From: a virus
Taxonomy: Duplodnaviria > Heunggongvirae > Uroviricota > Caudoviricetes
Strand: one strand, 5' to 3'
IMG/VR virus record: IMGVR_UViG_3300027749_005140
Location: 1-64,000 of that record
Length of the DNA: 64,000 bases
Below, in pieces: positions 4,399 through 64,000 of this stretch. The notes below the pieces were generated by a model. That model was given only the letters and a program-made list of their open reading frames with translations. It was not told the DNA's origin and ran no database searches. Within the stretch, counting starts at the first letter, position 1; the number at the start of each line of letters is the position of its first letter. A program made the translations under genes and the position numbers.

Positions 4399-5145
4399 AT
4401 GTACAATAAAATATATGACTTCTGTAAAGTAAGAAATGAAGGAACTATCTATGATAATAATTCACAGACACCTCCTCCAAGAGTTCAATTTTTAATGGAA
4501 CTTTTAGATTCGGAAGGTATTAAATATGAATTAGATAAGTTTTATACTTCTGAAGTTACCGGATATAATCTTATTCTACAGGGAACATCAAATAGGATGG
4601 TTGTTGCACATCATGATGTAAGTAATCCTAACATAGATAATGCAAATGATAATAGTGCGTCAGTAATCAATGCAATAATGATTAAGAAGCTTTTACCAAC
4701 AATGAATGTAATTCTATTAGATGGTGAAGAAGTTGGGGGTGTAGGCTCTAATAGAGCTTCAGAACTAATCAATAATGGTAAGTTTGGTGATATAGAATGG
4801 GTACTTAATTTAGAGTTAAGTGGTAAAGGTGGTAAACACTTTTTCATCGGAGATTATCCAGGACCTTTAACAGATCACATTAAAAATATTTTTGATTGTC
4901 CAATAGTTCGAACACCTTTTAATGACTCAGTTACATTTAGAAGAAATGGAATTGATTCAGTAGTTATAAATCCATTACCTCCTGTTTTAGAAGGTAAAAC
5001 AAATGTTAAATGGAATGAAGATACATATTTAGATTACTCTATGTTATTTAATTGTCATTCATCAAAAGACACGATTGCAACAATTGATCCAACAGATATG
5101 AAAGAATTTGTTGAAGATGTTGTTTTAAAAATATTAACATATTAA
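4399..5145 (+). CDS. M28-family zinc peptidase-like protein
   Basis: VVAHHDV (H-x-D), DNSASV (Asp), LDGEEVGGVGS (EE-x-G-x-GS) resemble the M28 aminopeptidase metal-ligand motifs. Confidence 0.45.
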   Translation: MYNKIYDFCKVRNEGTIYDNNSQTPPPRVQFLMELLDSEGIKYELDKFYTSEVTGYNLILQGTSNRMVVAHHDVSNPNIDNANDNSASVINAIMIKKLLPTMNVILLDGEEVGGVGSNRASELINNGKFGDIEWVLNLELSGKGGKHFFIGDYPGPLTDHIKNIFDCPIVRTPFNDSVTFRRNGIDSVVINPLPPVLEGKTNVKWNEDTYLDYSMLFNCHSSKDTIATIDPTDMKEFVEDVVLKILTY

Positions 5146-6333
5146 ATGAGAAGTTTAACCAAGTATGATGAATTTATTGTAGAGAAACTTATATTAGAAC
5201 AGCTTCTATTAGAGTCTAATGTAATTTATTCTAGTAAGTTTAAAAAAGCACTTACAAAATTACCGGATAATGAAATAGCTCAAAAGTTATTAGAAATAGA
5301 AAATAAAGACTTAGAAGTAGTTTCTAACTTCTTTGATATAAAAATAGACAATGATAATATATTGACATTTACTCCTGACAGAGTTGCACAACAAATACTT
5401 GAAGATACTAGAGAATATGTAAATTATGTTGGCCGTAGAGGTGGTTGGTTGACTAATAATGTTAGAACTAACGGAGCTATCTTTGCAAGACTTGGATTTA
5501 CTCCTACAACAGAAGAGGTATTTCATCCAAACAATAATCTTATTGGTGAAGTAATTAGTGAAGTGACCTCTGAAAAAACTCATAAAACTTGGTGTTATGT
5601 TAAGTTTCCAACTGGTGAAGGTGTTTATAATAGAGAAAAGTTAAGAACTATTGTTGATGATAAACAAAAGATAGTATTTACTAAAAGTAGACAAGAAATA
5701 AGAATTGGTAGAGCAGTTAGGATTCTATTGACTGCATATAACTTCAATCCAACCGCTGCAGCGATAGAAACATTTGTAAATGAGTTTAGAGCAGTCTTGT
5801 CAATTATGAATGATGTATTCTCACGATTTGAGATAGTCGAAGGTGATGATTTAGGATTCTGGTATCATAGAAGAAACTATGAGTTTCCACACCAAGGTAC
5901 ATTAGGAGGATCTTGTCAAGCAGTTGGAAATCTTGATTGGTTAGAAATTTATATTAAAAATCCACAAACCGTTAAACTACTTATGTTAAAGTCAGAAAAC
6001 TTTGATAATAAAATTATTGGTAGAGCACTTCTTTGGACATTAGATGATGGTAGACAAGTAATGGATAGTATTTATACAAGTAAAGATTCTGATAGAAATG
6101 TATTTATTGAATATGGTAATGCAAAAGGATATCTACAAATGAATTATAGTGATACATTTGTTGCTCATATAAATCCTGGTGAATTTGATCAATATCCATC
6201 AGTTGATAATATGAATAATTGGGATCCAATAACTGGTAAAATTAGTAATAGAAGTTTTCCAGGTTCAAGAGGTATAATATGGAGTGAGAATGATGGTGAT
6301 GAAGAATGGGATGAAGACGATGATAACTGGTAA
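5146..6333 (+). CDS. hypothetical protein, paralog family A (acidic C-terminus)
   Basis: Shares SKF..L..IEN..FTPDR, IY(I/V)KNPQ, GRA(L/I)LW, IYTS(K/N)DSD and an acidic tail with the ORF at 50467..51696. Confidence 0.4.
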   Translation: MRSLTKYDEFIVEKLILEQLLLESNVIYSSKFKKALTKLPDNEIAQKLLEIENKDLEVVSNFFDIKIDNDNILTFTPDRVAQQILEDTREYVNYVGRRGGWLTNNVRTNGAIFARLGFTPTTEEVFHPNNNLIGEVISEVTSEKTHKTWCYVKFPTGEGVYNREKLRTIVDDKQKIVFTKSRQEIRIGRAVRILLTAYNFNPTAAAIETFVNEFRAVLSIMNDVFSRFEIVEGDDLGFWYHRRNYEFPHQGTLGGSCQAVGNLDWLEIYIKNPQTVKLLMLKSENFDNKIIGRALLWTLDDGRQVMDSIYTSKDSDRNVFIEYGNAKGYLQMNYSDTFVAHINPGEFDQYPSVDNMNNWDPITGKISNRSFPGSRGIIWSENDGDEEWDEDDDNW

Positions 6334-6525
6334 AAAAAATAATATATACTAAGTGAAATACTTAAAGCTTTTTGAAGCATTTGTTGCAGATATACCACAA
6401 GTAGAATTATCAGACAAAACAATTGATGATGTTCTTAATCCGAATTTCTTTGAAGAAGTGATTGAGGATGATGGTTCTACAATAGATTCAAATGGAGTTA
6501 TACATATAAAAAATTGGAATATATA

Positions 6526-7707
6526 CTAAAGAATACCGTCTTTTAGTTGATTTATTAAATGATTAGTAATTTTCTGAATGATTCTACTACTAATTATTTC
6601 TGCTTGTTCTTCGTTAAAATCTGAGAACTTTTTACGTTGTTCATTCAATTCTGATTCTTTGATATCATTTAATTTTTCTTTTAAAGCTTGAATGGTTGGT
6701 GCGAACTTTCTATTTTCTAACCAAGTTATAAATTCACCTTTTATTTCGTCTATGATTGATTCCGCAGCAGGTATATAAAGTTTTCGATTCTCGAGTGTTT
6801 CGTCAGTAATTTGTGATAAGTGATCCAAATGTATTAGTGTGACACCATTTATTTCGTTTACATTTTCATTTACATTTTTCGGAATTGATAAATCTAAAAT
6901 CAATAATGGTTTTTTAATATTAAGTATTTCTTTATCAACTGTTGGTTTTTTCGATCCAGTCGCAACAATAACAACATCTACATTTTGGAGTTCTGATTTC
7001 AAATTTTCATAATCTTTTACAATAACATTTACTTTTTGAGCTAACTTTTCTGCCTTGTACTTTGTTCTATTGATTAAAGTTATGTTATCGTGTTTAGTAT
7101 GTTTTACTAAGTTTTGACAAGTATTTATTCCAATTTTTCCTGTTCCTAAAAGAAGAATATTTTTGTTTGCAATATCTTCGACATTTTTAATGATATATTG
7201 AACAGATGCAAATGCAACTGAAGTAGCCCCACTAGAAAGTTTGGTTTCTGTTTTTATTTTTTTACTGGCTTGTATAACAGAATTCACTAATCTTTCCATA
7301 AAAGAATTTACTAATCCTGATGATTTACTTTGTATAAAAGAAGATTTTAACTGACCGATAATTTCAAAATCACCTAAAATTTGACTATCTAGTCCGGCTC
7401 CTACTCGAAACATATGACTTACTGCGTCATGATCCTTGTATACATAAATAACCTCTTGTAATTCTTCAACAGTACCCTCGCTGTTATTACAAAGTAATTT
7501 GATCAACTCATATGGATGATTTGAAAAACCATATATTTCAGTTCTATTACAGGTTGAAGTAACGATTAGAGATTCAATTCCAGCTGTTTTTGCTTGTAAT
7601 AATAATCTTGATTTAGTATTAGTATCTAAAATAAACTTACCTCTCAGTTCAGCATCAGCATTCTTGTAACTTAATCCGATGGCATAGAAAGAAGTGTGCT
7701 TCGTCAT
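6526..7707 (-). CDS. hemA: glutamyl-tRNA reductase
   Basis: Hallmark STCNRTEIY motif near the N-terminus, LLGTGKIG NADPH-binding glycine-rich motif, length ~390 aa. Confidence 0.8.
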   Translation of the reverse strand: MTKHTSFYAIGLSYKNADAELRGKFILDTNTKSRLLLQAKTAGIESLIVTSTCNRTEIYGFSNHPYELIKLLCNNSEGTVEELQEVIYVYKDHDAVSHMFRVGAGLDSQILGDFEIIGQLKSSFIQSKSSGLVNSFMERLVNSVIQASKKIKTETKLSSGATSVAFASVQYIIKNVEDIANKNILLLGTGKIGINTCQNLVKHTKHDNITLINRTKYKAEKLAQKVNVIVKDYENLKSELQNVDVVIVATGSKKPTVDKEILNIKKPLLILDLSIPKNVNENVNEINGVTLIHLDHLSQITDETLENRKLYIPAAESIIDEIKGEFITWLENRKFAPTIQALKEKLNDIKESELNEQRKKFSDFNEEQAEIISSRIIQKITNHLINQLKDGIL

Positions 7708-7721: not shown

Positions 7722-8132
7722 TTATACTTCTACAACCCAGGTATCAGTTTTAAAATCATCCTTTGTCATTACAGTGATTACCGTTAGTGTAAATTCATTC
7801 GCACCAGGTGTTAGTACACAAACTATATTTAATTTAGTTTTCTTATCTCTAATAACAAATCTATTTGGTTTACCATTTTCATCCATAATATCAAATTGAT
7901 CTTGCATTAAAGCAATTGTTATTTCTTCAATCGCAGATTCTACTAAACCTCTAATATCATCATCATCAATTTTACCACTTTCTTTATTAAAACCGTGTCT
8001 ATATTGTTGAATTGCAGCATGTTCTACCTTTTCAAGATCAATTCTAATTTCAACTCTTTTTTGAATTGGACCTAAATCTGTTACTCGTGGTCTAAAACCA
8101 CCTTTAAAGCTTTCAAATTTCTTAATTATCAT
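7722..8132 (-). CDS. hypothetical protein
   Basis: ORF immediately downstream of hemA on the same strand. Confidence 0.3.
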   Translation of the reverse strand: MIIKKFESFKGGFRPRVTDLGPIQKRVEIRIDLEKVEHAAIQQYRHGFNKESGKIDDDDIRGLVESAIEEITIALMQDQFDIMDENGKPNRFVIRDKKTKLNIVCVLTPGANEFTLTVITVMTKDDFKTDTWVVEV

Positions 8133-8165
8133 ATTAGTAAATTATTTTTTAATAAACTATATATT

Positions 8166-8200
8166 AAATAAAAAAACCCTAGATTTCTCCAGGGTTCAAT
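8166..8200 (-). terminator. rho-independent terminator (minus strand)
   Basis: Minus-strand hairpin aaccctgg..agggtt followed by ttttttt, downstream of the S1-like gene. Confidence 0.5.
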
Positions 8201-8235
8201 TTTATTTTATCATTTTAAAAATGGGTCGTTTTTAA

Positions 8236-9324
8236 TTATCCAATCGTTAAGAAGATCTTACGTGATTGTCTATCAACTGATAAAACTTTTACTTTGATGT
8301 CTTGTCCAGACACAAACTTTTTGCCTAATTTCTCCATTTCTGAAGTGTGGATTAGTCCAACTGTTTCATCATCTAAGATTACTAAAGTTCCAAATTGTTT
8401 CACATCTTTCACACGACCATCAATAACTTGACCGTTTTTGATGTTATCCCAAAGTGTTTCTCTTAGAACTTGAGTAAGAATAATCTTCTCTTTAATGATT
8501 TCTTTTACATAGAATTCAATCTCTTGTCCTGGTTTAATTTCGGAGATTCTGTTTTGCCAATCTTCTGTAACATTCGCTTTGTGAATCATACCAGTTAAAC
8601 ACTCGTTAAACTCAACAAAGATACCAAACGGTGTTGTTCCAGTTACTCTACCACCATATAAGTTATTAAACTCAAGATTACCAATTTCTTCTGGAATCAA
8701 TGATTGTAGATACTTTCTACGACTTACGATATAAGTTCCTTCATGTTCTGAGAAAGACTCAATCATTACTTGGAATGTATCACCAACAATTGAAGTTGGG
8801 TCGTAAAGTTTGTTGATACCTGCTAAGGTATTTGGCATAAATCCTGGAAGAGTTACTCCTCCATTTGTGATTTCAACATCGTAACCTGCTGGATTAAGTC
8901 CTCTTACATAAGCGGTTACTGATTCTCCTTCCTCTAAAGATTTAAGGTTTTCGTGAGCTCTTGACTCATATAGTGAAGCAATGCTTCCTTTGATGAAATA
9001 TTGACCGTGATTTATCTCGGTAATTAAAACATCAACCTCATCTCCAGTGTTGCAATTTTTAAGGTACTTTGCCTCATTTGGTTTGTCTTCAACTCTAACA
9101 TCATCTTTGAATCCGTCAACGCTAAATACAAACTGATTAGCCATAATACCTCGGTAGTTAGATCTAACCACATTACCTATTTGTGGTATTTCTAATTTAA
9201 TAGAGCTATAAAGAGCATCTAAGTCTTTATCACTCATATTCTTACCCTTTCTGTAGCTTTTTTCTTCAAATAAAAGCTCAAAGTCTGGGTTTCCTACTTC
9301 TGGGTTTAAAATTTCGTTTGTCAT
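8236..9324 (-). CDS. multi-S1-domain RNA-binding protein (ribosomal protein bS1-like)
   Basis: Repeated S1 OB-fold signatures, e.g. GQVIDGRVKDVKQFGTLVILDDETVGLIHTSEM and GGRVTGTTPFGIFVEF..GMIH. Confidence 0.6.
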   Translation of the reverse strand: MTNEILNPEVGNPDFELLFEEKSYRKGKNMSDKDLDALYSSIKLEIPQIGNVVRSNYRGIMANQFVFSVDGFKDDVRVEDKPNEAKYLKNCNTGDEVDVLITEINHGQYFIKGSIASLYESRAHENLKSLEEGESVTAYVRGLNPAGYDVEITNGGVTLPGFMPNTLAGINKLYDPTSIVGDTFQVMIESFSEHEGTYIVSRRKYLQSLIPEEIGNLEFNNLYGGRVTGTTPFGIFVEFNECLTGMIHKANVTEDWQNRISEIKPGQEIEFYVKEIIKEKIILTQVLRETLWDNIKNGQVIDGRVKDVKQFGTLVILDDETVGLIHTSEMEKLGKKFVSGQDIKVKVLSVDRQSRKIFLTIG

Positions 9325-9375
9325 ATAATTTTTTTAGTGTTTAAGTTTTAGTGTGAATTATTAAAAAGTTTTAAA

Positions 9376-9741
9376 TTATTTAATTCTTTTTATAGATTTT
9401 TTTAACATATAATCTCTAAGCTTTGCTGCTTCTTCAAACCTTTCATTTTTGATAAGTTCATCCATTTTATCATTTACTTCTTTGGTAACTTCTTCTAAAG
9501 TCTTATTACCTATCTTTATAGGATCTAAAATAGAATTATAAAAATCATCCATTTCCGAAATACTAGTTAGATAAACATCCTGATTTTTAGGATTATTTAA
9601 CTTAGCACTTTTCATTATTTTGTTTAGGAATGGTTTATTTAGAGCAGAATTTTCAATTAAGTACTTTGCTAGATGATAAGGTCTATTCTTAAACATCTTT
9701 AAAAAGTTTGCTAAAATTTCATTTAATTCTTCGTTATTCAT
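9376..9741 (-). CDS. small protein with UVR-like motif
   Basis: C-terminal FEEAAKLRDYMLKK resembles the UvrB/UvrC UVR motif. Confidence 0.3.
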   Translation of the reverse strand: MNNEELNEILANFLKMFKNRPYHLAKYLIENSALNKPFLNKIMKSAKLNNPKNQDVYLTSISEMDDFYNSILDPIKIGNKTLEEVTKEVNDKMDELIKNERFEEAAKLRDYMLKKSIKRIK

Positions 9742-9773
9742 ACTACATATTATAAGTAATTAAATGATAAGGT

Positions 9774-10472
9774 TTATATTTTTTCAAATAAAATGTTAAA
9801 GTAATAATCAAATTTATAAGTAGAGCTTGGTTTTTCTTGATTAAACATTATTTTAATTGACGATTGATCAAACTCTGTTTCAGTTTGAATCTTAATTAGT
9901 TTATAAGTAGGATCTATTATATTAGTCGACCATGTATTATTATATCTAAGTAAATTTTGATTTCTTAAATCTTGGTATCTTACATAAAGCTCTACACCTT
10001 TGTATTTATATCTATCTAAAACATTTGAACGTATATAACTAGTTACAGCAACATTTACATCATTAAACATGGTCATGTCATTCTTAACTCCCTCAAAAGT
10101 TCTATATTTTTTAAGTGTCGCAAATAAATAGTTAGTAATTATTGTTTTTAAATCAATGGTTAATATCCATCTGGTATTATTATCTAATTGATATTTTGGT
10201 TGTGTGTTATCAATAACCAATGTATGATTTTTGAACTTATCACCATTATTACTACCTGGTGAATAAATATAAGAATCTAGTGATGTTTCAATAGAAACAT
10301 CTAATTGTTCTCCATTAGGTCTTTGATAATATATAATATCTTGATTATCTATACTTATGGTATCTTCTACTTCAAGCATTTTCGCACCGAAGAAGGTACT
10401 TTCCTCTACCATGTTTAATGTTCCATAAACTGCTCTATTCTGATATTCTGGTGATATATAACTTCTTCTCAT
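9774..10472 (-). CDS. hypothetical structural protein
   Basis: ORF contiguous with giant structural genes; no motif recognised. Confidence 0.3.
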   Translation of the reverse strand: MRRSYISPEYQNRAVYGTLNMVEESTFFGAKMLEVEDTISIDNQDIIYYQRPNGEQLDVSIETSLDSYIYSPGSNNGDKFKNHTLVIDNTQPKYQLDNNTRWILTIDLKTIITNYLFATLKKYRTFEGVKNDMTMFNDVNVAVTSYIRSNVLDRYKYKGVELYVRYQDLRNQNLLRYNNTWSTNIIDPTYKLIKIQTETEFDQSSIKIMFNQEKPSSTYKFDYYFNILFEKI

Positions 10473-13400
10473 TTAACTATCTTGTGTTTTTCCTATATAA
10501 GATGGTATTACAATTGGTGTTGTAATATCAAATGTATTTATTACATTTTCATCAATAGTATATTTTTGTAAATAATCTTTATTTGTACTACTATAAACAG
10601 TTTCCAAATAATACTTTAAATCCCAAGTTGATGAGAATATAAAAAAGTCATAAATAGAATATCCAAACTCATCTAACATAGGATATATTGACTTTTCGTC
10701 ATTTATGTTACCTAATCTTAATATATTTCCCTTTCTATTGATTTTTCTAATTTTTCTTTCTTTCATTAAACCAAAATCATTTAATATGGTATCAAACTTA
10801 TAATTACCACCAGATGGTATTCCATTAGAATCTCTTTCAAACAATTGAACATCATAAAATACTGGACTATAATAACCACTATATCGGTGTATTTCATGTG
10901 AAATTATATTTTTATTACCATGATAATTCTCAAATACTTTAGGTGGATATTTATTTTCAATAATATTTGCCGCAACTGGAATATTATTATAATAATTTAA
11001 TTGTGTTATATCTATTATTCTACCACCATCCAACTTTTTAATTGGATTTAATGTATTCGGAAGTTCAACTGCTCTTTTAAATAAAGAGTTCACTTTAACA
11101 TCTAATTTATCTGGTTCTTCACACTTTAATAAATATGGTAAATCTTTTATATTACCACCATCTACATCTGAATAACTATATTTTTTAATATTATTATTTT
11201 CATCAATAACAACATATGATACATAATTACTAAACCCATATTTATTAGTAATATCATTGATAGCATTGGTAAAATTCGATGCAGTTAGTTTCTGATTTAC
11301 ATCATTGTATAAAATATCTCTATTTGAATTAGATATATTTGGTGTTGTACCATCACTTATATTTATATTTACTAATATATTTTTCCATTTTTTATTGATA
11401 TAAATAATAATACCATTATTAAGACCTGAAGAAGTGGATTGTCCACCACCAACTAAAATATTATATCTATTATTTAATTTAATTATTGAACTTGTACCAA
11501 CAACTGAATTAAATGACTTATCTTTTCTTTCTATCCAGTAGTTTGATTGTAATGGATTAGTACCCGGTAATACTGAAATACTACTAGTTCCATTCCAATA
11601 TAATTTATAGATACTATTATTATAAACAATATTACCAGAAAATGTTCCATCATAAGTGTATTGTTTAGTTGAATTCCAAGATTCTATTATTTCCCACTTT
11701 GATTGAGTGTACGAAGACATAGTCCAAGTATTCATAGTTGGCTTAAAGTAATTATCACCAATCAATGATGTATAATAATTATTCTTATAGATAACAATTG
11801 ATGCGGTTGTATAACCAGTTGTAATAGATTTTCCTGGGTTCCAAAAATCAATAATATTAGATTCTGATGCACAGTAATAATATTCTCCTGAATTATATAC
11901 AACTGATGGACCAGTAGCACTTATAAATGAGCTATATGCAGTTACTAATGGTGACCAAAAAACACTATTTTTATCATTATAAAATCCCCATTTTTGTGTA
12001 TATGGAGCAGATGGTATTGTAATACCATATGTTGCAAATATTGGATTATTAGTAGTATTTGAAGAATATCTATAATATAGAATATCATCATGTAAAACCT
12101 TTGAAGCATTTGCCCAAGCAGTTCCACCATATACATATTGTTTATCCATCTTCCATTCATCAATAACACTCCAAACAAGATTACTATCTGAACTAGTGAG
12201 TCCAATTATTTTACTTTTATCAATATTATCAAATATTGGAGAAGAGTTATTATCAGATAATAAAATAGAAAATTTATAATCATCAAATGAATTAGATGAT
12301 TTTATATTGATTTTATCAATTTGATTATTTGTATTGATTGTAATACTACTAACATCATAAATATCAAATTTTATACCTCTAAATAAAGTATGATTTGGTA
12401 CAGATTCATCACCAACATTAAAATATGAATACTTATTAGTATTCTTTTTAATTTTACCATTAAATAATTTAGTGGACTTACCAAACAAATATGAAAAATA
12501 GTCATATGGGTATGGTGATGTTGATTGAGTTGATGTAATAGAATATGTAAAGTTTAAATACTTATTTAACTCAAAATTAAACATATTATCTATAGTATTA
12601 TTACTATTTAGATTCTGTATATGTAAACTATGATAAACATATGATGATGATGCGGAGTTTATTGTATAAAAATAATCTAAATTTCTTTCAGATCTTATAG
12701 GATATGGTTCGTAAATATTAACAGTTCTATTAAAATCTTCAAAAATTAAAGAATTATTCAATGAATATGGTAGATCGTTTGCGGAAAGTGATTTGTGAAA
12801 TCCCCATTTACAATAAACCGGATTTTTTCTCCATATTTCAGAAAGATCATTTCCATCTATCTTAAATGTTTCATAATTTGCAGTATATTCAGAAGATGTT
12901 GGTATATTAACTATATTATTTTTATAATTAAAATCATCCAAATTTATAGGATCTGTTAAACCACGTATATCTTCTAAATACATTTTTGTTTCATCAGTGG
13001 AAGTAATATTAGTAGATTCCTCATATTCATATTTAGAATAATCGGTATCAACAATTCTTGTATCAAAATCTTTTATATCACAAAAATTAAGTTTATAAAT
13101 TGAAAACTTTTTAGGTGAATTATTAAAATCAACTACTGTACTAACCTTTGTTGATTCTCCACGAACTTTATATGTAAAGTCATTTTGATTAAAAATAAAA
13201 GAGTAGTCTGTACTAACCATTATGTTACCATCTATCTTAACTAAATTATGGTATATTCCATCTATCTCAATTACCCAAACATCAGCATCATCAAACTCTG
13301 TCATCTGGAAGCTTTTTACACCACTACTATCATTAGTGATAAGTTTATTAGCAATATCTATCTCAGCATAATTTTGATTAAAACTAGATGCCGTTAGTCC

Positions 13401-23570: not shown

Positions 23571-24145
23571 TGGAAGAAATAGATTATTTATATGATCTAA
23601 TTAGTAAAACAGAGACAACCTTAATTGGTTATCGATTTTCAGATGAAAGAATTAAAGATGAAATTATTTCTAATCTTGGAGGAACCAAGATAATAGATTT
23701 AAGTTCATCTTTTTCTATGAAGTCAATCCTTAGAGATATGAAAATTGATCAAGTTTTAAATGAAGAAGAAAAACTTGAGTATCTATTATTAGATATAAAT
23801 GATATAAGAAATTCTTATATTAAACAAAGAAATTTTACTAATGAAGATATAAACCGGGCAGGTATAATAAAAAATACTATTTACGATATAAGAGATTGTT
23901 TAAGAGATAGTAGAAATGGTAAAGATATAAATGATATTAAATTGATAATTACTTGTCCACTACAATCTAATGGTTTAAATAAAGATAATAATATGATTGA
24001 TTCTTTTATAGGTGGTTCAACACCTTTATATTTGGCAGATTTAGCAATGGTTATAACTCAACAAAGTAATGATAAAGTAATACAAGTCATTAAGAATAGG
24101 GAATCAGATTTCCACAAAATTATAAAATATGATAGCATTAAATAG
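23570..24145 (+). CDS. hypothetical protein
   Basis: ORF. Confidence 0.3.
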   Translation: MEEIDYLYDLISKTETTLIGYRFSDERIKDEIISNLGGTKIIDLSSSFSMKSILRDMKIDQVLNEEEKLEYLLLDINDIRNSYIKQRNFTNEDINRAGIIKNTIYDIRDCLRDSRNGKDINDIKLIITCPLQSNGLNKDNNMIDSFIGGSTPLYLADLAMVITQQSNDKVIQVIKNRESDFHKIIKYDSIK

Positions 24146-24560
24146 AAGAGCACGTTATGAATATACGTTCATAGAAGAATTTGACTGCGGAATAATATTG
24201 GTCGGTAGTGAGGTAAAATCAGTTAGAATGGGTAATGTTACTTTAATCGATGCGTTTATTTTTATAAAAGATAATGAAGTTTGGATAAAGAATCTAAAAA
24301 TTGCTGCTTATAAATCAGCACATACTTTAGACATACACGAAGAAAATCGAGATAAAAAACTTCTTTTAAATAAAAAAGAGATTGTACGAATCAAAAGAAA
24401 ACTGGAAGATAAAGGTATAACCGCAATTCCACTTGGTATGTTTGTTAAGAATAACAAAATTAAAATTAAAATAGCTGTGGCTAAGGGTAAGAAAACTTGG
24501 GATAAAAGAGCTTCAATAAAGGAAAGAGATCTTACCAGAGAGATGCAACGAAATATATAA
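24129..24560 (+). CDS. smpB: SsrA-binding protein SmpB
   Basis: Full-length match to SmpB: IALNRRARYEY, GSEVKS, KLLLNKKE, AIPL..F, KIKIAVAKGKK.WDKR..IKERD. Confidence 0.85.
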   Translation: MIALNRRARYEYTFIEEFDCGIILVGSEVKSVRMGNVTLIDAFIFIKDNEVWIKNLKIAAYKSAHTLDIHEENRDKKLLLNKKEIVRIKRKLEDKGITAIPLGMFVKNNKIKIKIAVAKGKKTWDKRASIKERDLTREMQRNI

Positions 24561-26837: not shown

Positions 26838-27242
26838 ATGAATTTAAAAGAACAAATTAGCAAAGACTACATGATAGCTTTCAAAGAAAGAAATATCGTA
26901 GCAAAAAACTTACTTTCTGTAGTGAAAGGAGAGATCCAAACTATTGAGAAGAATACTAGTGTTGATTGTCTTTCTGATGTAGAAGTAGTTAAAATTCTTA
27001 ATAAAACTGCAAAGTCTTTAAATGAGGTTATTTCATTAAATGGTGATGAAGAGTCTAAATTACAATTAAAAATTGTAGAAGCTTTTCTTCCAACACCTTT
27101 AACTAAAGAAGATATTGTTATTAAAGTAAATGAACTAGTTGCATCTGGAATTACAAATGTTGGTGGTATTATGAAAGAGTTTGCTACTTTACATGTAGAT
27201 AGAAAAGTTGTATCAGAAGTTATTAAAGAAGTATTAGCATAA
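26838..27242 (+). CDS. GatB/YqeY-domain protein
   Basis: Colinear with YqeY (MNLKEQI..DYM.AFKERN..LLSVVKGEI.....EAFLP..LT.EDI). Confidence 0.6.
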   Translation: MNLKEQISKDYMIAFKERNIVAKNLLSVVKGEIQTIEKNTSVDCLSDVEVVKILNKTAKSLNEVISLNGDEESKLQLKIVEAFLPTPLTKEDIVIKVNELVASGITNVGGIMKEFATLHVDRKVVSEVIKEVLA

Positions 27243-28498
27243 TGAAAAATATAGTAGAAGAATTACAATGGCGTGGGTTAGTACACGATATAATACCCGG
27301 AACGGAGGCTCAACTTTTAAAAGAAGCCACCACCTCTTATATTGGTTTTGATCCAACGTCAGATTCTCTACACATTGGGAGTTTAGTTCCCATCATTCTT
27401 CTAAAACATATGAAGAATTTTGGACACAATCCTATCGCACTTGTTGGTGGGGCTACTGGTATGATCGGTGACCCCTCTGGTAAGTCAAATGAAAGAAATC
27501 TATTAGACGAACAAGAACTTAATAAAAATGTTGAAGGTATCAAAAATACTTTGACCAGATTTTTAGGTGATACTCCTGTAGTAAATAACTACGATTGGAT
27601 GTCAAAGTTTAGTTTCATAGATTTTGTAAGAGACATCGGTAAAAGAATTACTATAAATTACATGTTATCAAAACAATCTGTAAAGAACCGTATCGAAGGT
27701 GAAGGAATGTCTTTCACTGAGTTTACTTACCAGTTGATTCAAGGATACGATTTCTACCATCTAAATAAAGAGTATAACTGTTTATTACAAATGGGTGGTT
27801 CAGATCAATGGGGTAACATTACAACAGGAACTGAACTAATTCATAAAATGAATCCTGGTAGGGAAGCTTTTGCTATGACATGTCCTTTACTAACTAAATC
27901 GGATGGTTCTAAGTTCGGAAAATCTGAAGGAGGTACAAACATATGGTTAGATAAAGATAAGACCTCTGTGTACAAGTTTTACCAATTTTGGATAAGTACT
28001 GATGATAATGATGCAGAGAGATATATTAAAATCTTTACATTTTTAGATAAAGAAACTATTGATAATTTAATAGAAGAGCATAATAAAGCAAAACACTTAT
28101 TTTTGTTACAAAAAACATTAGCAAGAGAAATAACTATTATGGTTCACGGTCAACAAGAGTTTGAAAAAGCAGTAGAAGCTTCTAACATTTTATTCAATGG
28201 TGGAGATTTAAACTTACTTGATGAAGAATTATTCTTAGATATATTTGGTGGAATACCACAAGCGAAAGTTCCTATGGAAGATATTCTTGCTGGTATTACA
28301 ATGACAGACATTCTATTTAAAACAGGTTTCTTAAAATCAAATAATGAAGCTAGAAGAGCTTTAAAAGAAAACTCTGTTGCAGTAAATAAAATAAAGAGAG
28401 AGGAAGACTACATAGTAACAGATGTTGATTTGATAAATGATAAGTTTATCATACTACAAAGAGGTAAGAAAAGTTACTTCTTAGTTGAAGCATCATAG
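27242..28498 (+). CDS. tyrS: tyrosyl-tRNA synthetase
   Basis: YIGFDPTSDSLHIGSLVPI (HIGH region, here HIGS), VGGATGMIGDPSGKS, KFGKS, C-terminal S4-like domain. Confidence 0.85.
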   Translation: MKNIVEELQWRGLVHDIIPGTEAQLLKEATTSYIGFDPTSDSLHIGSLVPIILLKHMKNFGHNPIALVGGATGMIGDPSGKSNERNLLDEQELNKNVEGIKNTLTRFLGDTPVVNNYDWMSKFSFIDFVRDIGKRITINYMLSKQSVKNRIEGEGMSFTEFTYQLIQGYDFYHLNKEYNCLLQMGGSDQWGNITTGTELIHKMNPGREAFAMTCPLLTKSDGSKFGKSEGGTNIWLDKDKTSVYKFYQFWISTDDNDAERYIKIFTFLDKETIDNLIEEHNKAKHLFLLQKTLAREITIMVHGQQEFEKAVEASNILFNGGDLNLLDEELFLDIFGGIPQAKVPMEDILAGITMTDILFKTGFLKSNNEARRALKENSVAVNKIKREEDYIVTDVDLINDKFIILQRGKKSYFLVEAS

Positions 28499-29410: not shown

Positions 29411-29467
29411 ATTATCAGAAAAATTAAAATAAAAACATAAAAATTAGGTAGATAAGTAAACTTTTAT

Positions 29468-29475
29468 TACTTTTG
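29468..29475 (+). promoter_or_regulatory. -7 promoter box TAnnTTTG of leader/tRNA module 1
   Basis: tacttttg followed by conserved AAAAAGAGAGAATAAACTTTTAATATATA 5' UTR element. Confidence 0.5.
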
Positions 29476-29533
29476 TACTATAAAAATAACAAAAAAACAA
29501 AAAGAGAGAATAAACTTTTAATATATAATAACA

Positions 29534-29644
29534 ATGAGAACAAATTCAATACATACAAGCTTTAGTAAGTCGTTCAAGTGGTTTAGCCACAAGTTCGGAT
29601 GTATGAGTATGTCGTTCTCAAAAGAAGATGTTATTGTAGGATAA
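29534..29644 (+). CDS. leader peptide 1 (36 aa) of tRNA array 1
   Basis: MRTNSIHTSFSKSFKWFSHKFGCMSMSFSKEDVIVG; Lys/Phe/Trp/His codons mirror the downstream tRNAs. Confidence 0.45.
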   Translation: MRTNSIHTSFSKSFKWFSHKFGCMSMSFSKEDVIVG

Positions 29645-29674
29645 TGTCATAAAAGAGAATAAAACATAAACGTA

Positions 29675-29707
29675 AACCCGAACTTAAAATTAAGTTCGGG
29701 TTTTTTT
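29675..29707 (+). terminator. rho-independent terminator/attenuator 1
   Basis: aaacccgaactt aaaatt aagttcggg + ttttttt. Confidence 0.7.
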
Positions 29708-29716
29708 ATTTTATAA

Positions 29717-29789
29717 TCCCTCTAAACATTGTTGGTGGATGTACCAGACTTTTAATCTGGGAAGGTGGTTTCGATTACCACAGGGGGAA
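29717..29789 (+). tRNA. tRNA-Lys (anticodon TTT)
   Basis: Hand fold: acceptor tccctct/aggggga, anticodon loop cttttaa, T-arm gtggt ttcgatt accac. Confidence 0.55.
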
Positions 29790-29795
29790 CAAAAT

Positions 29796-29868
29796 ACAGG
29801 TCAGCATAATGGTATGCACCAGGTCTCCAAAACCTCGGATGGAAAGGGTTCGACTCCCTTGGCTTGTG
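29796..29868 (+). tRNA. tRNA-Trp (anticodon CCA)
   Basis: Acceptor acaggtc/ggcttgt, loop ctccaaa, T-arm aaggg ttcgact ccctt; D-arm slightly atypical. Confidence 0.45.
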
Positions 29869-29875
29869 CAAAAAA

Positions 29876-29948
29876 GTGGAGGTAGCTCAGTTGGTAGAGC
29901 ACTACCCTGAAGAGGTAGGTGTCGCGGGTTCGAGCCCCGCTCTCCACA
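29876..29948 (+). tRNA. tRNA-Phe (anticodon GAA)
   Basis: Acceptor gtggagg/tctccac, D-arm tagctcagttggtagagc, loop ctgaaga, T-arm gcggg ttcgagc cccgc. Confidence 0.65.
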
Positions 29949-29955
29949 CAAATAT

Positions 29956-30044
29956 GGTGTTTGTAACCGGTAAAGGCAGCCGACCAGATTGTGAATCTGG
30001 AATGAATTAATTTTCTAATGCGGGTTCGAATCCCGTCTCACACC
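29956..30044 (+). tRNA. tRNA-His-like (anticodon GTG) with G-1 and expanded variable region
   Basis: Extra 5' G, anticodon loop ttgtgaa, T-arm gcggg ttcgaat cccgt; 19-nt variable region and two acceptor mismatches. Possibly degenerate. Confidence 0.35.
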
Positions 30045-30062
30045 CTAAATTCTCCCTCTAAA

Positions 30063-30135
30063 CATTGTTGGTGGATGTACCAGACTTTTAATCTGGGAAG
30101 GTGGTTTCGATTACCACAGAGGGAACTAAGTCTTT
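30063..30135 (+). tRNA. tRNA-Lys (anticodon TTT), second copy
   Basis: Near-identical (1 nt difference) to the copy at 29717..29789. Confidence 0.55.
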
Positions 30136-30195
30136 GTAACTTATTATAAAGGAGCCACTAACTTATTAATATATAAATAAAAATTATTATTATAT

Positions 30196-31233
30196 ATGAT
30201 AAGTTGTAAATTTTGTAAAAAAGTATATATAGGACGTAATAAAAATAAAGATGTTTTAATACATGAGTCCCATTGTATTCTAAATACAGATAGAGTACCA
30301 TATATATGTAATATATGTGATATGGAGTTTGATAAAAGACATTCTTTAATAGGACATAAAAGTCATTGCGGTAATTTAAAAGTTAGGAAAAAACGGATTA
30401 CAAAAGAGAAAGTAATTAAAATACACAAATGTAAATACTGTGATTCAATATTCGAAAATGGTTATAAATTGGGCGGACATGTATCACATTGTGATAGAGA
30501 TCCAGAATATGAAACTAAGAGGAGAAAAATGTGTGATAATATCTCTTTTCTTAATAAAGGAAAGAAATTATCAGATGAAACTAGAAAAAAAATATCAAAT
30601 AGTAGAAGAGAATATTTAAAAAATAATCCAGATAAAGTTCCCTATCTATTAAACCATAGTAGAAATGAATCATATCCTGAGAAATACTTTACTGATGTTT
30701 TTTTAGATAGAAATATTAGTGTAATAAAATCTTACAGAATTGGATTATATGAATTAGATTTTTGTATTTTAGATAAAAAAATAGATATAGAAATCGATGG
30801 TGGTCAACACTATTTAGATAATAAAATTATTGAAAGTGATAAAAGAAGAAATAAATATCTAGAAGATTTAGGTTGGGATATAATTAGAATAAAATGGAGT
30901 GATTATCAATTGTTGGATAAAGATTCTAAAAGAGAATTTATTGATAATATAATCTATTACATAAATGGTCTGGTAAAAACTAAACCAACATTTGAAATAT
31001 TAGATAATAAAAATTATTGTAAATGTGGTATAGAAATATACAAATGTTCTAAAATGTGTTCTAAATGTGATTCATTTAGACAAAGAAAAGTTGAAAGACC
31101 TTCATTAGAGCAAATTTTAAAAGATATAAAAGAAACAAACTATGTCTTGACCGGTAAAAAATATGGTGTTAGTGATAACACTATAAGAAAGTGGATAAGA
31201 CAATATAATGCGGATTTAGCTGAGACGGTTTAG
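30196..31233 (+). CDS. homing-endonuclease-like protein: 3x C2H2 zinc fingers + DUF559/Vsr-like PD-(D/E)xK nuclease + C-terminal HTH
   Basis: CxxC..HxxxH x3; YELDF..IDIEIDGGQHY..D.RR..L..GWDIIRIKW core; stop codon lies inside the D-loop of the following tRNA. Confidence 0.55.
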   Translation: MISCKFCKKVYIGRNKNKDVLIHESHCILNTDRVPYICNICDMEFDKRHSLIGHKSHCGNLKVRKKRITKEKVIKIHKCKYCDSIFENGYKLGGHVSHCDRDPEYETKRRKMCDNISFLNKGKKLSDETRKKISNSRREYLKNNPDKVPYLLNHSRNESYPEKYFTDVFLDRNISVIKSYRIGLYELDFCILDKKIDIEIDGGQHYLDNKIIESDKRRNKYLEDLGWDIIRIKWSDYQLLDKDSKREFIDNIIYYINGLVKTKPTFEILDNKNYCKCGIEIYKCSKMCSKCDSFRQRKVERPSLEQILKDIKETNYVLTGKKYGVSDNTIRKWIRQYNADLAETV

Positions 31234-31281
31234 CGTATGGTTGAAAGCCATAAGAGGTCAATTCGATTTTGACAATCCGCA
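31210..31281 (+). tRNA. tRNA-Phe (anticodon GAA), second gene
   Basis: Acceptor gcggatt/aatccgc, loop ttgaaag, T-arm gtcaa ttcgatt ttgac; 5' 24 nt overlap the endonuclease ORF. Confidence 0.5.
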
Positions 31282-31285
31282 CAAA

Positions 31286-31776: not shown

Positions 31777-31862
31777 AGTGAGTAAGCCTTGATGGTGATA
31801 GGGTCTGCCTGGAAAGCAGTACGTACGTTTAGATGTATAGGGTTCGATTCCCTTGCTCACTA
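31777..31862 (+). tRNA. tRNA-Ser (anticodon GGA), class II
   Basis: Acceptor agtgagt/gctcact, loop ctggaaa, long variable arm, T-loop ttcgatt. Confidence 0.45.
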
Positions 31863-38848: not shown

Positions 38849-38921
38849 GGTGTATTCGTCTAGTGGTAAGGATTACGCTTTTTCAAAGCGGAGGACGTCG
38901 GTTCGAATCCGACATACACTA
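38849..38921 (+). tRNA. tRNA-Glu (anticodon TTC)
   Basis: Acceptor ggtgtat/atacact, D-arm tcgtctagtggtaaggat (Glu-like), loop ttttcaa, T-arm gtcgg ttcgaat ccgac. Confidence 0.5.
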
Positions 38922-38925
38922 CAAA

Positions 38926-38991: not shown

Positions 38992-39066
38992 GCTGCTATC
39001 GTCTAACGGTAGGACAACATCTTCTCAAGGTGTGAGATACGGGTTCGATCCCCGTTAGCAGCACCA
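38992..39066 (+). tRNA. tRNA-Glu (anticodon CTC) with encoded CCA
   Basis: Perfect acceptor gctgcta/tagcagc, loop ttctcaa, T-arm acggg ttcgatc cccgt, followed by a cca. Confidence 0.55.
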
Positions 39067-39182: not shown

Positions 39183-39254
39183 GATCCGGTCTTCTAATGG
39201 TCAGGAAGCAAGGTTTTCATCCTTGTAATCAGGGTTCGATTCCCTGTCGGATTA
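39183..39254 (+). tRNA. tRNA-like, anticodon TTC (Glu-like; G1:U72 and G7:U66 wobbles)
   Basis: Acceptor gatccgg/tcggatt, stem caagg/ccttg, loop ttttcat, T-arm caggg ttcgatt ccctg. Confidence 0.4.
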
Positions 39255-39264
39255 CAAAAAAAAT

Positions 39265-51701: not shown

Positions 51702-52655
51702 ATGAAAGTAACACAACATATAGACGCAGCCAAGAAACCATTGTTTTCCTTTGAAATTTTACCACCTTTAAAAGGACAAAACATACAATCTATATTTGAT
51801 GGTATTGATCCACTAATGGAGTTCGATCCACCATTTATTGATGTAACTTATCATCGTGAAGAATATGAGTATAAAGAATTACCTAATGGGTTATTTCAAA
51901 AGAAAGTTGTAAAGAAACGTCCTGGCACAGTTGGTATTTGTTCTGCTATTCAAAACAAGTATAATATTGATGCTATTCCACATGTTCTTTGTGGTGGATT
52001 TACTAAAGAAGATACTGAGAATCTATTGATTGACTTAGATTTCTTAGGAATTGATAATGTAGTAGCACTTCGTGGTGATTCTTTAATTACAGAAACATAT
52101 TTTAGTGCGGAAAAGGATGGAAATAATTATGCATCCGAATTAGTTACCCAAATTAGTAATCTGAATAAAGGAATCTATTTAGATGAAAGTTTAAAAAATG
52201 TTGCCAAGACAAATTTTTGTATTGGTGTGGCAGGTTACCCAGAGAAACACATGGAAGCTCCTAGTTTAGATAGTGACATTCACTTTTTGAAAGAGAAAAT
52301 AAAAAATGGAGCAGAGTATATTATTACTCAGATGTTTTTTGATAATAAGAAGTTCTTTGAGTTTGTTGATAAATGTAGAGCGGCAGGAATCACAGTCCCA
52401 ATTATTCCAGGATTAAAACCAATTTCAACTAAGAGACAACTTAATCTAATCTCACATAGATTTAGTATTGATTTTCCAGATGATTTGATTATGGCAGTAG
52501 TTAAAGCTCCCGATAATAATGCAGTAAAACAAATTGGTATTGAATGGTGTACTGAACAAAGCAAGGAATTAGTTAAAGTAGGTATTCCACTTTTACATTA
52601 TTATTCGATGGGGAAAGCAGAAAATATTAAAGCTATTGCAAAAGAAATTTTCTAA
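51702..52655 (+). CDS. metF: 5,10-methylenetetrahydrofolate reductase
   Basis: Colinear with MetF: FSFEILPP, IDVTYH, IPHVLCGG, VVALRGD, VAGYPEKH, IITQMFFD, IPIIPGLKPIS, HYYSMGKAE. Confidence 0.8.
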   Translation: MKVTQHIDAAKKPLFSFEILPPLKGQNIQSIFDGIDPLMEFDPPFIDVTYHREEYEYKELPNGLFQKKVVKKRPGTVGICSAIQNKYNIDAIPHVLCGGFTKEDTENLLIDLDFLGIDNVVALRGDSLITETYFSAEKDGNNYASELVTQISNLNKGIYLDESLKNVAKTNFCIGVAGYPEKHMEAPSLDSDIHFLKEKIKNGAEYIITQMFFDNKKFFEFVDKCRAAGITVPIIPGLKPISTKRQLNLISHRFSIDFPDDLIMAVVKAPDNNAVKQIGIEWCTEQSKELVKVGIPLLHYYSMGKAENIKAIAKEIF

Positions 52656-53128: not shown

Positions 53129-54124
53129 ATGATAATCAAATCAGAAATAAATCCGAAAGACTTTGAGGTCGGTACAATCATTGGCCGTTTCCAAGTAAAC
53201 AAACTACACGATGGTCACAGATCATTAATCAACTACGTATTAGATAACCATAAAAAAGTAATCATACTTTTAGGTGTATCAAGAGTTCAAAATACTCGCA
53301 AAAATCCACTAGACTTTGCTTCTCGTAAAGCAATGATTCAAGCAGAGTTTCCTTCTGTTATGATACTACCAATTCAAGATCAAAGATATAACGAAAAATG
53401 GTCTCAACAAGTTGATTCTATTATCCCAATTCCTTTCGGTGAGAAAAAAACAGTAATCTACGGAAGTAGAGACTCTTTCATTCCTTACTACTCTGGTAAA
53501 TTTCCAGTTATCGAATTAGAAGAAAGTGTTACTTATAATGGTACAAACATCCGTGAAGAAGTTGCAAAAGAAACATTAGACTCTGACGACTTTAGAGCAG
53601 GTGTTATTTACTCTTCTTTTAATCATAGACCTACAACCTTCCCAACAGTTGATATTATTGCACACGATAATGAAGGTAATATCCTTTTAGGTAGAAAACC
53701 TAATGAGAAATTATTTAGATTTGTTGGTGGTTTTGTTGATACTTCAGATAGTTCATTTGAAGCAGCAGCTTTAAGAGAACTTAATGAAGAAACTGGTGGG
53801 AACTTAGTAGTAAATAAAGAATTAAAATATATTACTTCTCAAAAAGTAAATGATTGGAGATATAAAGGTGAAGACTCTGGTATTATGACTACATTATATT
53901 TGGCAACAAGACACTTTGGATTTGCTAAAGCTTCTGACGACATAGCCGAAGTAAAATGGATACCTGCTAATAAATTTAGTAACTATGATGGTATCAGAAC
54001 TGGAATTGTTCCGGAACACAGAGAGTTGATGAAAACATTTATTGATAAAGTTTATGATCAAAATCTTATGCCAATTGCAGAAAGATTAGAAGAAAGAACT
54101 AATGTAACTTACACCATTGAGTAA
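53129..54124 (+). CDS. nadM: bifunctional NMN adenylyltransferase / Nudix hydrolase (NadM-Nudix)
   Basis: N-terminal GRFQVNKLHDGH (nucleotidyltransferase H-x-G-H) plus C-terminal Nudix box GGFVDTSDSSFEAAALRELNEETG. Confidence 0.8.
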   Translation: MIIKSEINPKDFEVGTIIGRFQVNKLHDGHRSLINYVLDNHKKVIILLGVSRVQNTRKNPLDFASRKAMIQAEFPSVMILPIQDQRYNEKWSQQVDSIIPIPFGEKKTVIYGSRDSFIPYYSGKFPVIELEESVTYNGTNIREEVAKETLDSDDFRAGVIYSSFNHRPTTFPTVDIIAHDNEGNILLGRKPNEKLFRFVGGFVDTSDSSFEAAALRELNEETGGNLVVNKELKYITSQKVNDWRYKGEDSGIMTTLYLATRHFGFAKASDDIAEVKWIPANKFSNYDGIRTGIVPEHRELMKTFIDKVYDQNLMPIAERLEERTNVTYTIE

Positions 54125-59031: not shown

Positions 59032-59685
59032 ATGGAATTATTTCACTTCGATATAGAAACTGCCGGCCAATATAGAAACTTTACAGAATTTGAAAAAAAT
59101 GATGAACGTGGTTCAGACCTCTTTAGAGGTAAGTTCCGAAAAATGGGTTGGGATTCTAAATATGAAAATGTTGATGAAGCTTACGCAGATAATTGTGGTA
59201 TTGTACCAACTTATGGTAGAATCGTTTGTATTTCATTTGGCTATTTAGATAATGGTCAAGAAAGAATTTCAAGTTTTTATGGTGAAGATGAAAGAGACAT
59301 CGTAGAAAAATTTAACAATTTACTTAAAAAGATTGAGAAGAAAGACTTTAATCTATCTGGATTCAGAATAGCTTACTTTGACATTCCCTGGGTAGCTCAT
59401 AAGTTAGCTAAGTATGGTATTAAACCAGCTGATATAATTACGACTTATAATAAGAAACCTTGGGAGATGAGAATTACTGATATGTCTGATGATTGGAAGT
59501 CAAAATTCGCTTGGGCATTCTCATTTGATGAGATGTGTTATGAGTTGGGTATTGAATCTCCAAAGGATAATATGAATGGTGGAGACGTACATGATGCTTA
59601 CTGGGAAGGTAGAGTTGAAGAAGTAAAAACCTACTGTGAAAAGGATGTAAAAGCCTCTATTAGAGTATCTCAGGTTATTTATTAA
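59032..59685 (+). CDS. DEDDy-type 3'-5' exonuclease (DnaQ/RNase D-like)
   Basis: Exo I FDIETAG, Exo II GFRIAYFDIPWV, Exo III YCEKDVKAS. Confidence 0.5.
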   Translation: MELFHFDIETAGQYRNFTEFEKNDERGSDLFRGKFRKMGWDSKYENVDEAYADNCGIVPTYGRIVCISFGYLDNGQERISSFYGEDERDIVEKFNNLLKKIEKKDFNLSGFRIAYFDIPWVAHKLAKYGIKPADIITTYNKKPWEMRITDMSDDWKSKFAWAFSFDEMCYELGIESPKDNMNGGDVHDAYWEGRVEEVKTYCEKDVKASIRVSQVIY

Positions 59686-62551: not shown

Positions 62552-62639
62552 TACTGGGTTGCCATAGCCAGGTCGAATGGTTCGGACTGTTAATCCGATG
62601 AGCATCGCTCCACCGTGGGTTCGAATCCCACCCCAGTAG
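62552..62639 (+). tRNA. tRNA-like, anticodon GTT, with class-II-length variable hairpin (atypical)
   Basis: Perfect acceptor tactggg/cccagta, stem tcgga/tccga, loop ctgttaa, variable hairpin gagc atc gctc, T-arm gtggg ttcgaat cccac. Confidence 0.35.
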
Positions 62640-62647
62640 CAATACAT

Positions 62648-62728
62648 TGGCACATACCAGCCCAACCTGATAAGTTGGAGAACTGTAGCGGTACGTTGAA
62701 AACGTGGGTTCGAATCCCTCTGTGCCAA
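62648..62728 (+). tRNA. tRNA-Ile-like (anticodon GAT) with atypical architecture
   Basis: Acceptor tggcaca/tgtgcca, anticodon arm ccaac ctgataa gttgg (loop identical to bacterial tRNA-Ile); D region too short and 26 nt between anticodon and T arms. Confidence 0.35.
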
Positions 62729-63095: not shown

Positions 63096-63102
63096 CAATA
63101 AT

Positions 63103-63906: not shown

Positions 63907-64000
63907 CCTATTGATTTCAAATAGGACTCTTTTATCAAAGTTTTTTCATATAAATCTCCAAATTTTATGTTATTTACATAATTTATATCATTTGGATTAT

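Follow-up and report, generated by a model that had tools for sequence, protein, structure and literature searches.

A Flavobacterium-derived glutamyl-tRNA reductase gene in a variable slot of a Mahaphage-group megaphage

A glutamyl-tRNA reductase gene in a viral contig

The DNA analyzed here, hereafter the window, comprises the 64,000 nucleotides (nt) from position 1 to position 64,000 of the IMG/VR virus record IMGVR_UViG_3300027749_005140 (Caudoviricetes). An earlier note, made from the sequence letters only, had singled out one of its open reading frames (ORFs) as hemA, the gene for glutamyl-tRNA reductase (GluTR). By family, the encoded protein is a genuine GluTR with predicted enzymatic activity. 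The gene was taken up once from a Flavobacterium lineage, and we think it probable that it serves as a host-derived auxiliary metabolic gene (AMG) that maintains 5-aminolevulinate (5-ALA) and heme flux during infection. The ORF had been delimited exactly, as follows.

6526..7707, minus strand: hemA, ATG start, 393 amino acids (aa), glutamyl-tRNA reductase (GluTR/HemA)

The confident assignment to HemA was borne out by domain, family, and motif matches alike. Pfam detected the three GluTR domains, namely GlutR_N (PF05201; 2.2e-39, residues 10 to 155, covering profile positions 1 to 151 of 151), the NADPH-type Rossmann domain Shikimate_DH (PF01488; 1e-25, residues 174 to 300), and GlutR_dimer (PF00745; 1.2e-15). 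The whole protein matched the NCBIfam hemA equivalog TIGR01035 at 4.2e-83, with 279.6 bits against a cutoff of 209.55, and aligned end to end with the GluTR structures 1gpj (7e-35) and 4n7r (5e-34). The STCNRTEIY signature occupies residues 51 to 59 and the GTGKIG sequence, a GxGxxG NADPH-binding motif, residues 188 to 193. Cys53, the catalytic Cys of the signature, is matched by position 48 of 1gpj and, in the Arabidopsis sequence, by the Cys of STCNRMEIY, and it is invariant across all phage and host copies compared. Neither of the two outcomes named beforehand as speaking against the assignment was therefore encountered: the domains and the equivalog are those of GluTR and not of another NAD(P)-dependent dehydrogenase family, and the catalytic Cys is in place. 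PHROGs holds no GluTR family, and its sole match for the protein was a weak one to an alcohol dehydrogenase.

The window belongs to a megaphage

The GC content of the window is about 29%, and its tRNA genes, for many different amino acids, number at least 29 (ARAGORN; Rfam). Its 1068-aa protein shares 73.5% identity with a protein of LR745206.1 (634,780 bp) and 66.6% with one of LR756502.1 (642,428 bp), both complete huge-phage genomes, with weaker matches to a 735-kb phage, Lak phages, and Flavobacteriia jumbo phages. Of the 21 ORFs encoded from window position 136 to 23203, 14 to 17 have collinear homologs in LR745206.1 and LR756502.1, and this collinearity of gene order identifies the window as a piece of a Bacteroidetes-infecting megaphage of the "Mahaphage" group, the clade of huge phages that includes the Lak phages (Al-Shayeb et al. 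2020, PMC7162821). Proteins are 40 to 78% identical between the window and its relatives of this clade. The relationship is visible only at the protein level, a megablast search of the hemA locus against GenBank phages having returned no match.

The window resembles LR745206.1, LR756502.1, and the Lak phages in backbone order, in the large tRNA arrays (tRNA-Glu included), in the presence of translation genes, and in Bacteroidetes hosts. Its own translation-related genes encode TyrRS, SmpB, an S1-domain protein, and an L7/L12-like protein; a sigma factor, an NAD-dependent ligase, and DNA methyltransferases are also encoded. A 1463-aa protein matches tail-spike and virion PHROGs. With such virion-protein matches in the window and with flanks syntenic with those of complete huge phages, hemA lies within a viral genome.

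hemA occupies a variable slot in a conserved backbone

The genes around hemA are the following.

4399..5145, plus strand: M28-peptidase-like gene, conserved backbone flank on the far side of the slot
5146-6333: 395-aa ORF between the M28-like gene and the 58-aa gene, lineage-specific
6353..6529, plus strand: 58-aa backbone gene, convergent with hemA, the two stops overlapping by 4 nt
7722..8132, minus strand: 136-aa ORF, function unassigned, 14 nt upstream of hemA on the same strand
8236..9324, minus strand: S1-domain protein gene, conserved backbone flank on the upstream side of the slot

The order of the S1 gene, the small convergent gene, and the M28 gene is kept in LR745206.1 and LR756502.1. 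These two genomes differ from the window in that they lack hemA (tblastn of all 50,697 GenBank phage records) and carry unrelated ORFs between the S1 gene and the 58-aa gene, either a 139-aa ORF on the opposite strand or ORFs of 234 and 114 aa. The slot spans positions 29422 to 29911 of the LR745206.1 locus and 29660 to 30792 of the LR756502.1 locus. Since the flanks are kept and the relatives hold unrelated ORFs there, hemA occupies a cargo slot of variable content in a conserved backbone; this slot behaves as a variable insertion hotspot, the backbone being otherwise collinear. The 58-aa gene, whose end (...KNWNIY*) is also found in the hemA-less relatives, is conserved in those genomes and hence marks the 3' insertion junction.

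The 136-aa ORF accompanies hemA in every hemA-bearing phage contig examined. No homolog of it was detected at this slot in LR745206.1 or LR756502.1 and it had no Pfam or PHROG match; it may be a cotranscribed partner of hemA or a separate cargo gene. The 395-aa ORF likewise had no homolog at the locus in the two relatives and no Pfam or PHROG match.

A single capture from Flavobacterium

The best cellular homologs of the window hemA product are Flavobacterium HemA proteins of 414 to 420 aa (mostly 419), at 77 to 84% identity, the genes being 83 to 88% identical at the nucleotide level. Closer still are nine phage clusters defined at 90% identity (P0001 to P0009), with proteins of 391 to 393 aa that are 85 to 98% identical to the window copy. 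Wherever their context was examined, it consisted of the 136-aa ORF, hemA, a 55- to 58-aa ORF, a 395- to 396-aa ORF, and the M28 peptidase. The hemA-bearing phage contigs came from independent JGI, ENA, and Logan assemblies and show the same gene, truncation (see below), insertion site, and neighbors.

In a neighbor-joining tree of 121 HemA proteins, 10 of them from phages (100 bootstraps), the phage sequences formed a single clade (100/100 bootstraps) that was sister to the Flavobacterium subgroup P0010 to P0025 (93/100). In a member of this host subgroup, P0012, hemA is the first gene of the operon hemA-hemC-hemD-hemE-hemF-hemB, upstream of which lie hemH, a hemJ-like gene, and an AraC-type regulator. 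One sample, ERZ27277814, yielded both a P0012 host contig and a phage-type contig. Phage hemA hence goes back to one uptake from a Flavobacterium lineage: its sequences fall inside the diversity of Flavobacterium HemA, and the locus of donor type is a hem operon, which gives the gene the cellular origin expected of an AMG. Synonymous divergence (dS) between phage hemA and the nearest host hemA is 0.44 to 0.83, far below the 1.3 to 1.5 seen between Flavobacterium species, indicating that the capture is recent on the genus scale and pointing to the probable host lineage. The GC content at third codon positions (GC3) is 0.18 in phage hemA versus 0.24 in the host gene.

Phage hemA shares with Flavobacterium HemA (TIGR01035, EC 1.2.1.70) the three-domain architecture, the Cys in STCNRTEIY, and the NADPH motif; in contrast to the host gene, it is megaphage borne and comes without the rest of the operon and the adjacent AraC-type regulator. 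Alignment of the nucleotide sequences of the loci placed the start of phage/host homology at the second ATG of the host gene, i.e., codon 6, and its end immediately after the LKDG codons, at about host codon 396. The final two phage codons and the stop have no homology to the host gene.

Two further observations concern exchange with the host. In a P0009-type phage hemA (positions 976 to 2154 of its contig, compared with positions 8001 to 9260 of a host contig), a sliding window gave 91 to 94% nucleotide identity centrally and 82 to 85% at both ends, a pattern that may reflect phage-host homologous recombination after the original capture and is suggestive, not conclusive. A PolB-exo-like ORF at 59032-59685 was considered as a second recent capture from the same host locus and rejected, as it is only 31% identical.

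GluTR genes in other viruses

That hemA is uncommon in phages, as had been surmised, agrees with the lack of a PHROG family, with the lack of a credible match by tblastn among the 50,697 GenBank phage records, and with full-text literature searches, in which no report of a phage GluTR was found. Searches of the literature on huge phages with heme and on truncated GluTR dimerization domains returned nothing useful. The tblastn matches labeled "phage" were rejected as fragments of 1.5 to 11 kb or unannotated records at 22 to 29% identity, and the annotated hemA of "Acinetobacter phage MD-2021a" (two contigs; CAKLQH020000007.1 checked) was rejected because it lies on Acinetobacter chromosome with lolB, prsA, pth, rplY, dnaG, bamD, and hemA.

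A scan of IMG/VR with hemA as a single protein likewise found none, whereas an alignment-based scan did find viral GluTRs. Five large viral contigs (50 to 271 kb; L019 to L023) encode GluTRs of 321 to 337 aa at 33 to 39% identity, and a sixth, of 4.2 kb, contributes a partial match (59%). Hem-operon neighbors are lacking in all six. With only 33 to 39% identity to the window HemA, the short viral GluTRs are independent acquisitions from other donors. Like the window protein, those of L019 to L023 have the GlutR_N and NADPH domains, no neighboring hem operon, and a shortened C terminus; they differ from it in belonging to other phage types and other genomic contexts and in that the whole dimerization domain is gone, as found in both loci checked (L019 and L022). 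In L019 (IMGVR_UViG_3300032607_001425), a cassette at 8686-10957 comprises a heme oxygenase, a ferredoxin-dependent bilin reductase, and then a 321-aa GluTR; its flanks carry homing endonucleases, an RNA ligase, and a phosphoesterase with PHROG matches. In three further viral contigs (147 to 271 kb), the GluTR match lies beside IMPDH/GMP-reductase-like and CMP-sugar genes; the one of these examined in full, L022, encodes a protein of 337 aa.

Phage tetrapyrrole genes already known are those for heme oxygenase and bilin reductases, cobS, and, recently, AlaS. Phage AlaS (vAlaS, 5-ALA synthase), found in vAlaS-HemO-PcyA/X cassettes, is a demonstrated tetrapyrrole AMG (Wegner et al. 2024, PMC11480375), and the L019 cassette mirrors this published arrangement, with a C5-pathway enzyme in place of AlaS. 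The parallel with phage hemA includes a position at tetrapyrrole entry (5-ALA formation), aquatic phages, and bacterial origin (PMC11480375). The two differ in that vAlaS provides a one-enzyme Shemin route while phage HemA is a C5 enzyme that would depend on host HemL, and the window hemA, unlike the vAlaS cassettes, has no adjoining heme oxygenase or bilin reductase. The same study argues that the one-enzyme Shemin route suits phages better than GtrR plus GsaM (the C5 route) and would spare Glu-tRNA. The window hemA thus joins the tetrapyrrole AMGs already known and, together with the other viral genes, looks like part of a recurrent, undescribed phage GluTR phenomenon.

All phage copies lack the end of the dimerization domain

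Compared with the host gene, phage hemA is without the last ~22 residues, and this C-terminal truncation is common to all phage copies. Coverage of the GlutR_dimer profile is 1 to 99 in the host and 1 to 79 of 99 in the phage copies, the last 20 positions being gone; the window protein, with PF00745 positions 1 to 79 only, thus has an incomplete C-terminal dimerization domain. An AlphaFold2 model of the full-length host HemA, built from a shallow 57-sequence alignment, had a pLDDT of 56, and only its helix boundaries were used. On this low-confidence model, with helices at 299-338, 341-365, 371-394, and 396-411, the missing piece would correspond to the final helix of the dimerization domain (host residues 396 to 411).

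Since host homology ends exactly at the junction, the truncation is a direct product of the capture junction. A full dimerization domain is dispensable for family membership, because the curated short GluTR family NF001909 has only 338 positions. Speculatively, dimerization may be altered, or host control removed, by the absence of this helix and of host codons 1 to 5, should the latter be translated.

Taken further, this would mean that helix loss created a deregulated or monomeric GluTR, insensitive to feedback or proteolysis or uncoupled from HemL, and that the phage selected it for that reason. The presence of the truncation in every phage copy would fit such a variant, as would ten substitutions that are fixed in every phage copy at sites invariant in 110 host sequences (e.g., R194I, beside the GxGxxG motif), the lack of a dimerization domain in the unrelated viral GluTRs checked, and the existence of naturally short GluTR families such as NF001909. 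The position of the junction alone, however, explains the truncation, and the structural model has low confidence. We therefore consider a selected change of function rather unlikely, and favor a captured GluTR that maintains tetrapyrrole flux and owes its short C terminus to the junction.

Phage hemA is under purifying selection

Among phage hemA copies, the ratio of nonsynonymous to synonymous divergence (dN/dS) is 0.10 to 0.20 at dS values of 0.26 to 0.62. It is 0.03 to 0.06 in host-to-host comparisons of hemA and mostly 0.04 to 0.11 (range, 0.00 to 0.15) in flanking phage genes. The dN/dS of hemA is hence about 3 times the host value and its dN is 3 to 6 times that of the flanking genes, which indicates that constraint has been relaxed or has shifted. 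The window protein nevertheless keeps 268 of the 307 positions (87%) at which 110 Flavobacterium HemAs show at least 97% conservation; the 39 changes at conserved positions are evenly spread over the domains and spare the catalytic motif and the GxGxxG glycines. No frameshifted hemA was found among the phage contigs examined. The dN/dS values and the retained positions together argue for a functional protein and not a decaying fragment, and indicate that phage hemA is retained under purifying, if relaxed or shifted, constraint. Maintenance by selection in the viral lineage, another property expected of an AMG, is attested by the low dN/dS among diverged copies.

These data bear on whether hemA might be a neutral passenger, i.e., recently acquired host DNA in a recombination hotspot, of no benefit to the phage and heading to decay. 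Such a fate would agree with a slot whose content differs in each relative, a capture junction that cut the 3' end of the gene, an evolutionary rate above that of the neighbors with a dN/dS above that of the host gene, and complete relatives that do without hemA. It is difficult to reconcile with at least nine 90%-identity clusters that are intact at dS values of up to 0.62, with their dN/dS, with the conserved catalytic Cys, NADPH motif, and bulk of host-invariant positions, and with the lack of frameshifted copies. A neutral passenger is accordingly unlikely, and the gene is better seen as one that benefits the phage through tetrapyrrole supply.

The tRNA-Glu genes predate hemA

The earlier note had linked hemA to phage tRNA-Glu genes. 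Three such genes are real, with scores of 55.9 to 60.7 bits on the Rfam tRNA model:

38849-38922, plus strand: tRNA-Glu (UUC), ARAGORN and Rfam
38992-39066, plus strand: tRNA-Glu (CUC), ARAGORN and Rfam
39183-39255, plus strand: tRNA-Glu (UUC), ARAGORN and Rfam

They lie about 31 kb away from hemA. LR745206.1, the closest complete relative, has no hemA and carries four tRNA-Glu genes (three UUC, one CUC) in the homologous array, so that the multiplicity of tRNA-Glu is older than hemA and part of the general tRNA complement. The functional pairing of the two did not hold up for the same reason, and tRNA-Glu genes in a phage are not to be taken as a sign of a functional link with hemA. Once charged, phage tRNA-Glu may serve as GluTR substrates.

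The suggestion that the enzyme might drain charged tRNA-Glu gains no support from a tRNA-Glu complement that predates it. In its wider form, GluTR would consume or sequester Glu-tRNA(Glu) and thereby influence translation or the stringent response in the host, while the tRNA-Glu genes of the phage would compensate. GluTR hydrolyzes the thioester in the absence of NADPH, its substrate is a charged tRNA, and the window combines three tRNA-Glu genes with many translation genes (TyrRS, SmpB, S1, L7/L12-like). Set against this are the greater age of the tRNA-Glu genes, an NADPH domain that is fully conserved under selection although a mere tRNA sink would not need it, the origin of the gene in a heme operon, and the link of another phage GluTR to heme oxygenase and bilin reductase, i.e., to tetrapyrrole metabolism. 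We regard manipulation of translation as quite improbable. An artifact, be it a host/phage chimeric assembly or a window of bacterial rather than viral DNA, might be suspected from the 83 to 88% nucleotide identity to a co-occurring host gene and is effectively refuted by identical junctions and neighbors in independent assemblies from several projects and assemblers, by the phage-like GC3 and distinct clade, and by a backbone syntenic with curated complete huge phages that comes with virion-protein PHROG matches.

Other tetrapyrrole, cofactor, and translation genes in the window

Accompanying tetrapyrrole genes, hemL in particular, had been proposed as a check on the role of hemA. Searches covered 64 kb of a genome that is likely larger than 500 kb. 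A Pfam scan that included all ORFs of 400 aa or more and most of those reaching 110 aa detected no class III aminotransferase (HemL-like) or other hem domain, and tblastn with host HemB, HemC, HemD, HemE, HemF, HemH, and HemJ found no such gene in the 64 kb, the only match being hemA itself. The check was thus negative within the window, which does not encode a complete C5 pathway (GluTR plus HemL). Genes for other cofactors are present:

136-783: CoaE (dephospho-CoA kinase)
51702-52655: MTHFR
53129-54124: cytidylyltransferase/NMNAT-Nudix fusion
54465-56057: NAMPT

Together with hemA, the NAMPT, NMNAT/Nudix, CoaE, and MTHFR genes suggest a theme of topping up host NAD, CoA, folate, and heme pools.

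Several features relate to translation. The gene for the L7/L12 C-terminal-domain protein (784-1236) and the multi-S1-domain gene (8236-9324) are both conserved in related megaphages. An SmpB gene lies at 24129-24560 (Pfam, 172 bits), and no tmRNA gene was found in the 64 kb by ARAGORN or Rfam; close to it are a YqeY-like gene (26838-27242) and the TyrRS gene (27242-28498). A 345-aa ORF at 30196-31233, with REase_MTES_1575/DUF559/RAP endonuclease-like domains, is located inside the first tRNA array, its 3' end overlapping a tRNA-Phe gene (31210-31282), and may be a mobile endonuclease of the tRNA cluster. Unusually long tRNA calls of 88 to 89 nt (His, Asn, and Cys) are found at 29957-30045, 62552-62640, and 63008-63096, and there are three tRNA-like matches by Rfam only (31778-31861, 62648-62728, and 62938-62997). 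These long and Rfam-only calls may be intron-containing, degenerate, or atypical tRNAs.

A probable role in host tetrapyrrole supply

GluTR is the controlling, regulated step of the C5 pathway, as established in enteric bacteria and plants. A phage copy would, because GluTR controls flux through the pathway, maintain or raise tetrapyrrole supply. We envisage that, in a Flavobacterium-infecting, Mahaphage/Lak-related megaphage, a single event of illegitimate recombination brought hemA, the leading gene of the host hem operon, into the variable slot. In the enzyme, Cys53 would attack Glu-tRNA(Glu) and NADPH would reduce the thioester to glutamate-1-semialdehyde, which host HemL, followed by HemB, HemC, HemD, HemE, HemF, and HemH, would turn into 5-ALA and then heme or siroheme. 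Phage-transcribed GluTR would in this way keep up or raise tetrapyrrole supply after takeover of host expression, serving respiratory cytochromes and other hemoproteins for the duration of a long infection by the megaphage. In this scheme, the activity of the enzyme, its reliance on host HemL, and any gain for the phage are predictions, whereas the identity, origin, and single capture of the gene, its junctions, its retention under purifying selection, and the lack of further hem genes in the window were observed.

Some of the data weigh against such a role. The closest complete relatives live without hemA, which makes the gene dispensable for this type of phage; the window contains no hemL, other hem gene, or obvious hemoprotein; hemA accumulates amino acid changes faster than its host counterpart and its phage neighbors; and the loss of 20 of the 99 dimerization-profile positions could impair dimerization or coupling to HemL. 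On balance, we still judge the maintenance of 5-ALA and heme flux to be the probable function.

More tentatively, it is possible that entry into the C5 pathway is a recurrent target of aquatic phages, such that unrelated lineages each acquired a GluTR and kept a C-terminally shortened form adaptively, not by an accident of capture. If true, the shortened GluTR would escape feedback or turnover control by the host, or would no longer have to pair with HemL, and the L019 GluTR would occupy the position of AlaS in a heme oxygenase-bilin reductase cassette.

No prior description of the tRNA-dependent C5 entry enzyme in a phage was found, even though the case has been made for the Shemin route (PMC11480375). 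The hemA gene provides a precise host assignment, to a Flavobacterium lineage, for an uncultured megaphage. As a natural GluTR truncation variant, its product would be useful for examining the role of the dimerization domain and is relevant to 5-ALA bioproduction, the yield of which is limited by HemA stability and regulation. That a megaphage of a nonphotosynthetic freshwater heterotroph keeps a GluTR under selection points to heme/cofactor supply as a possible bottleneck of long infections.

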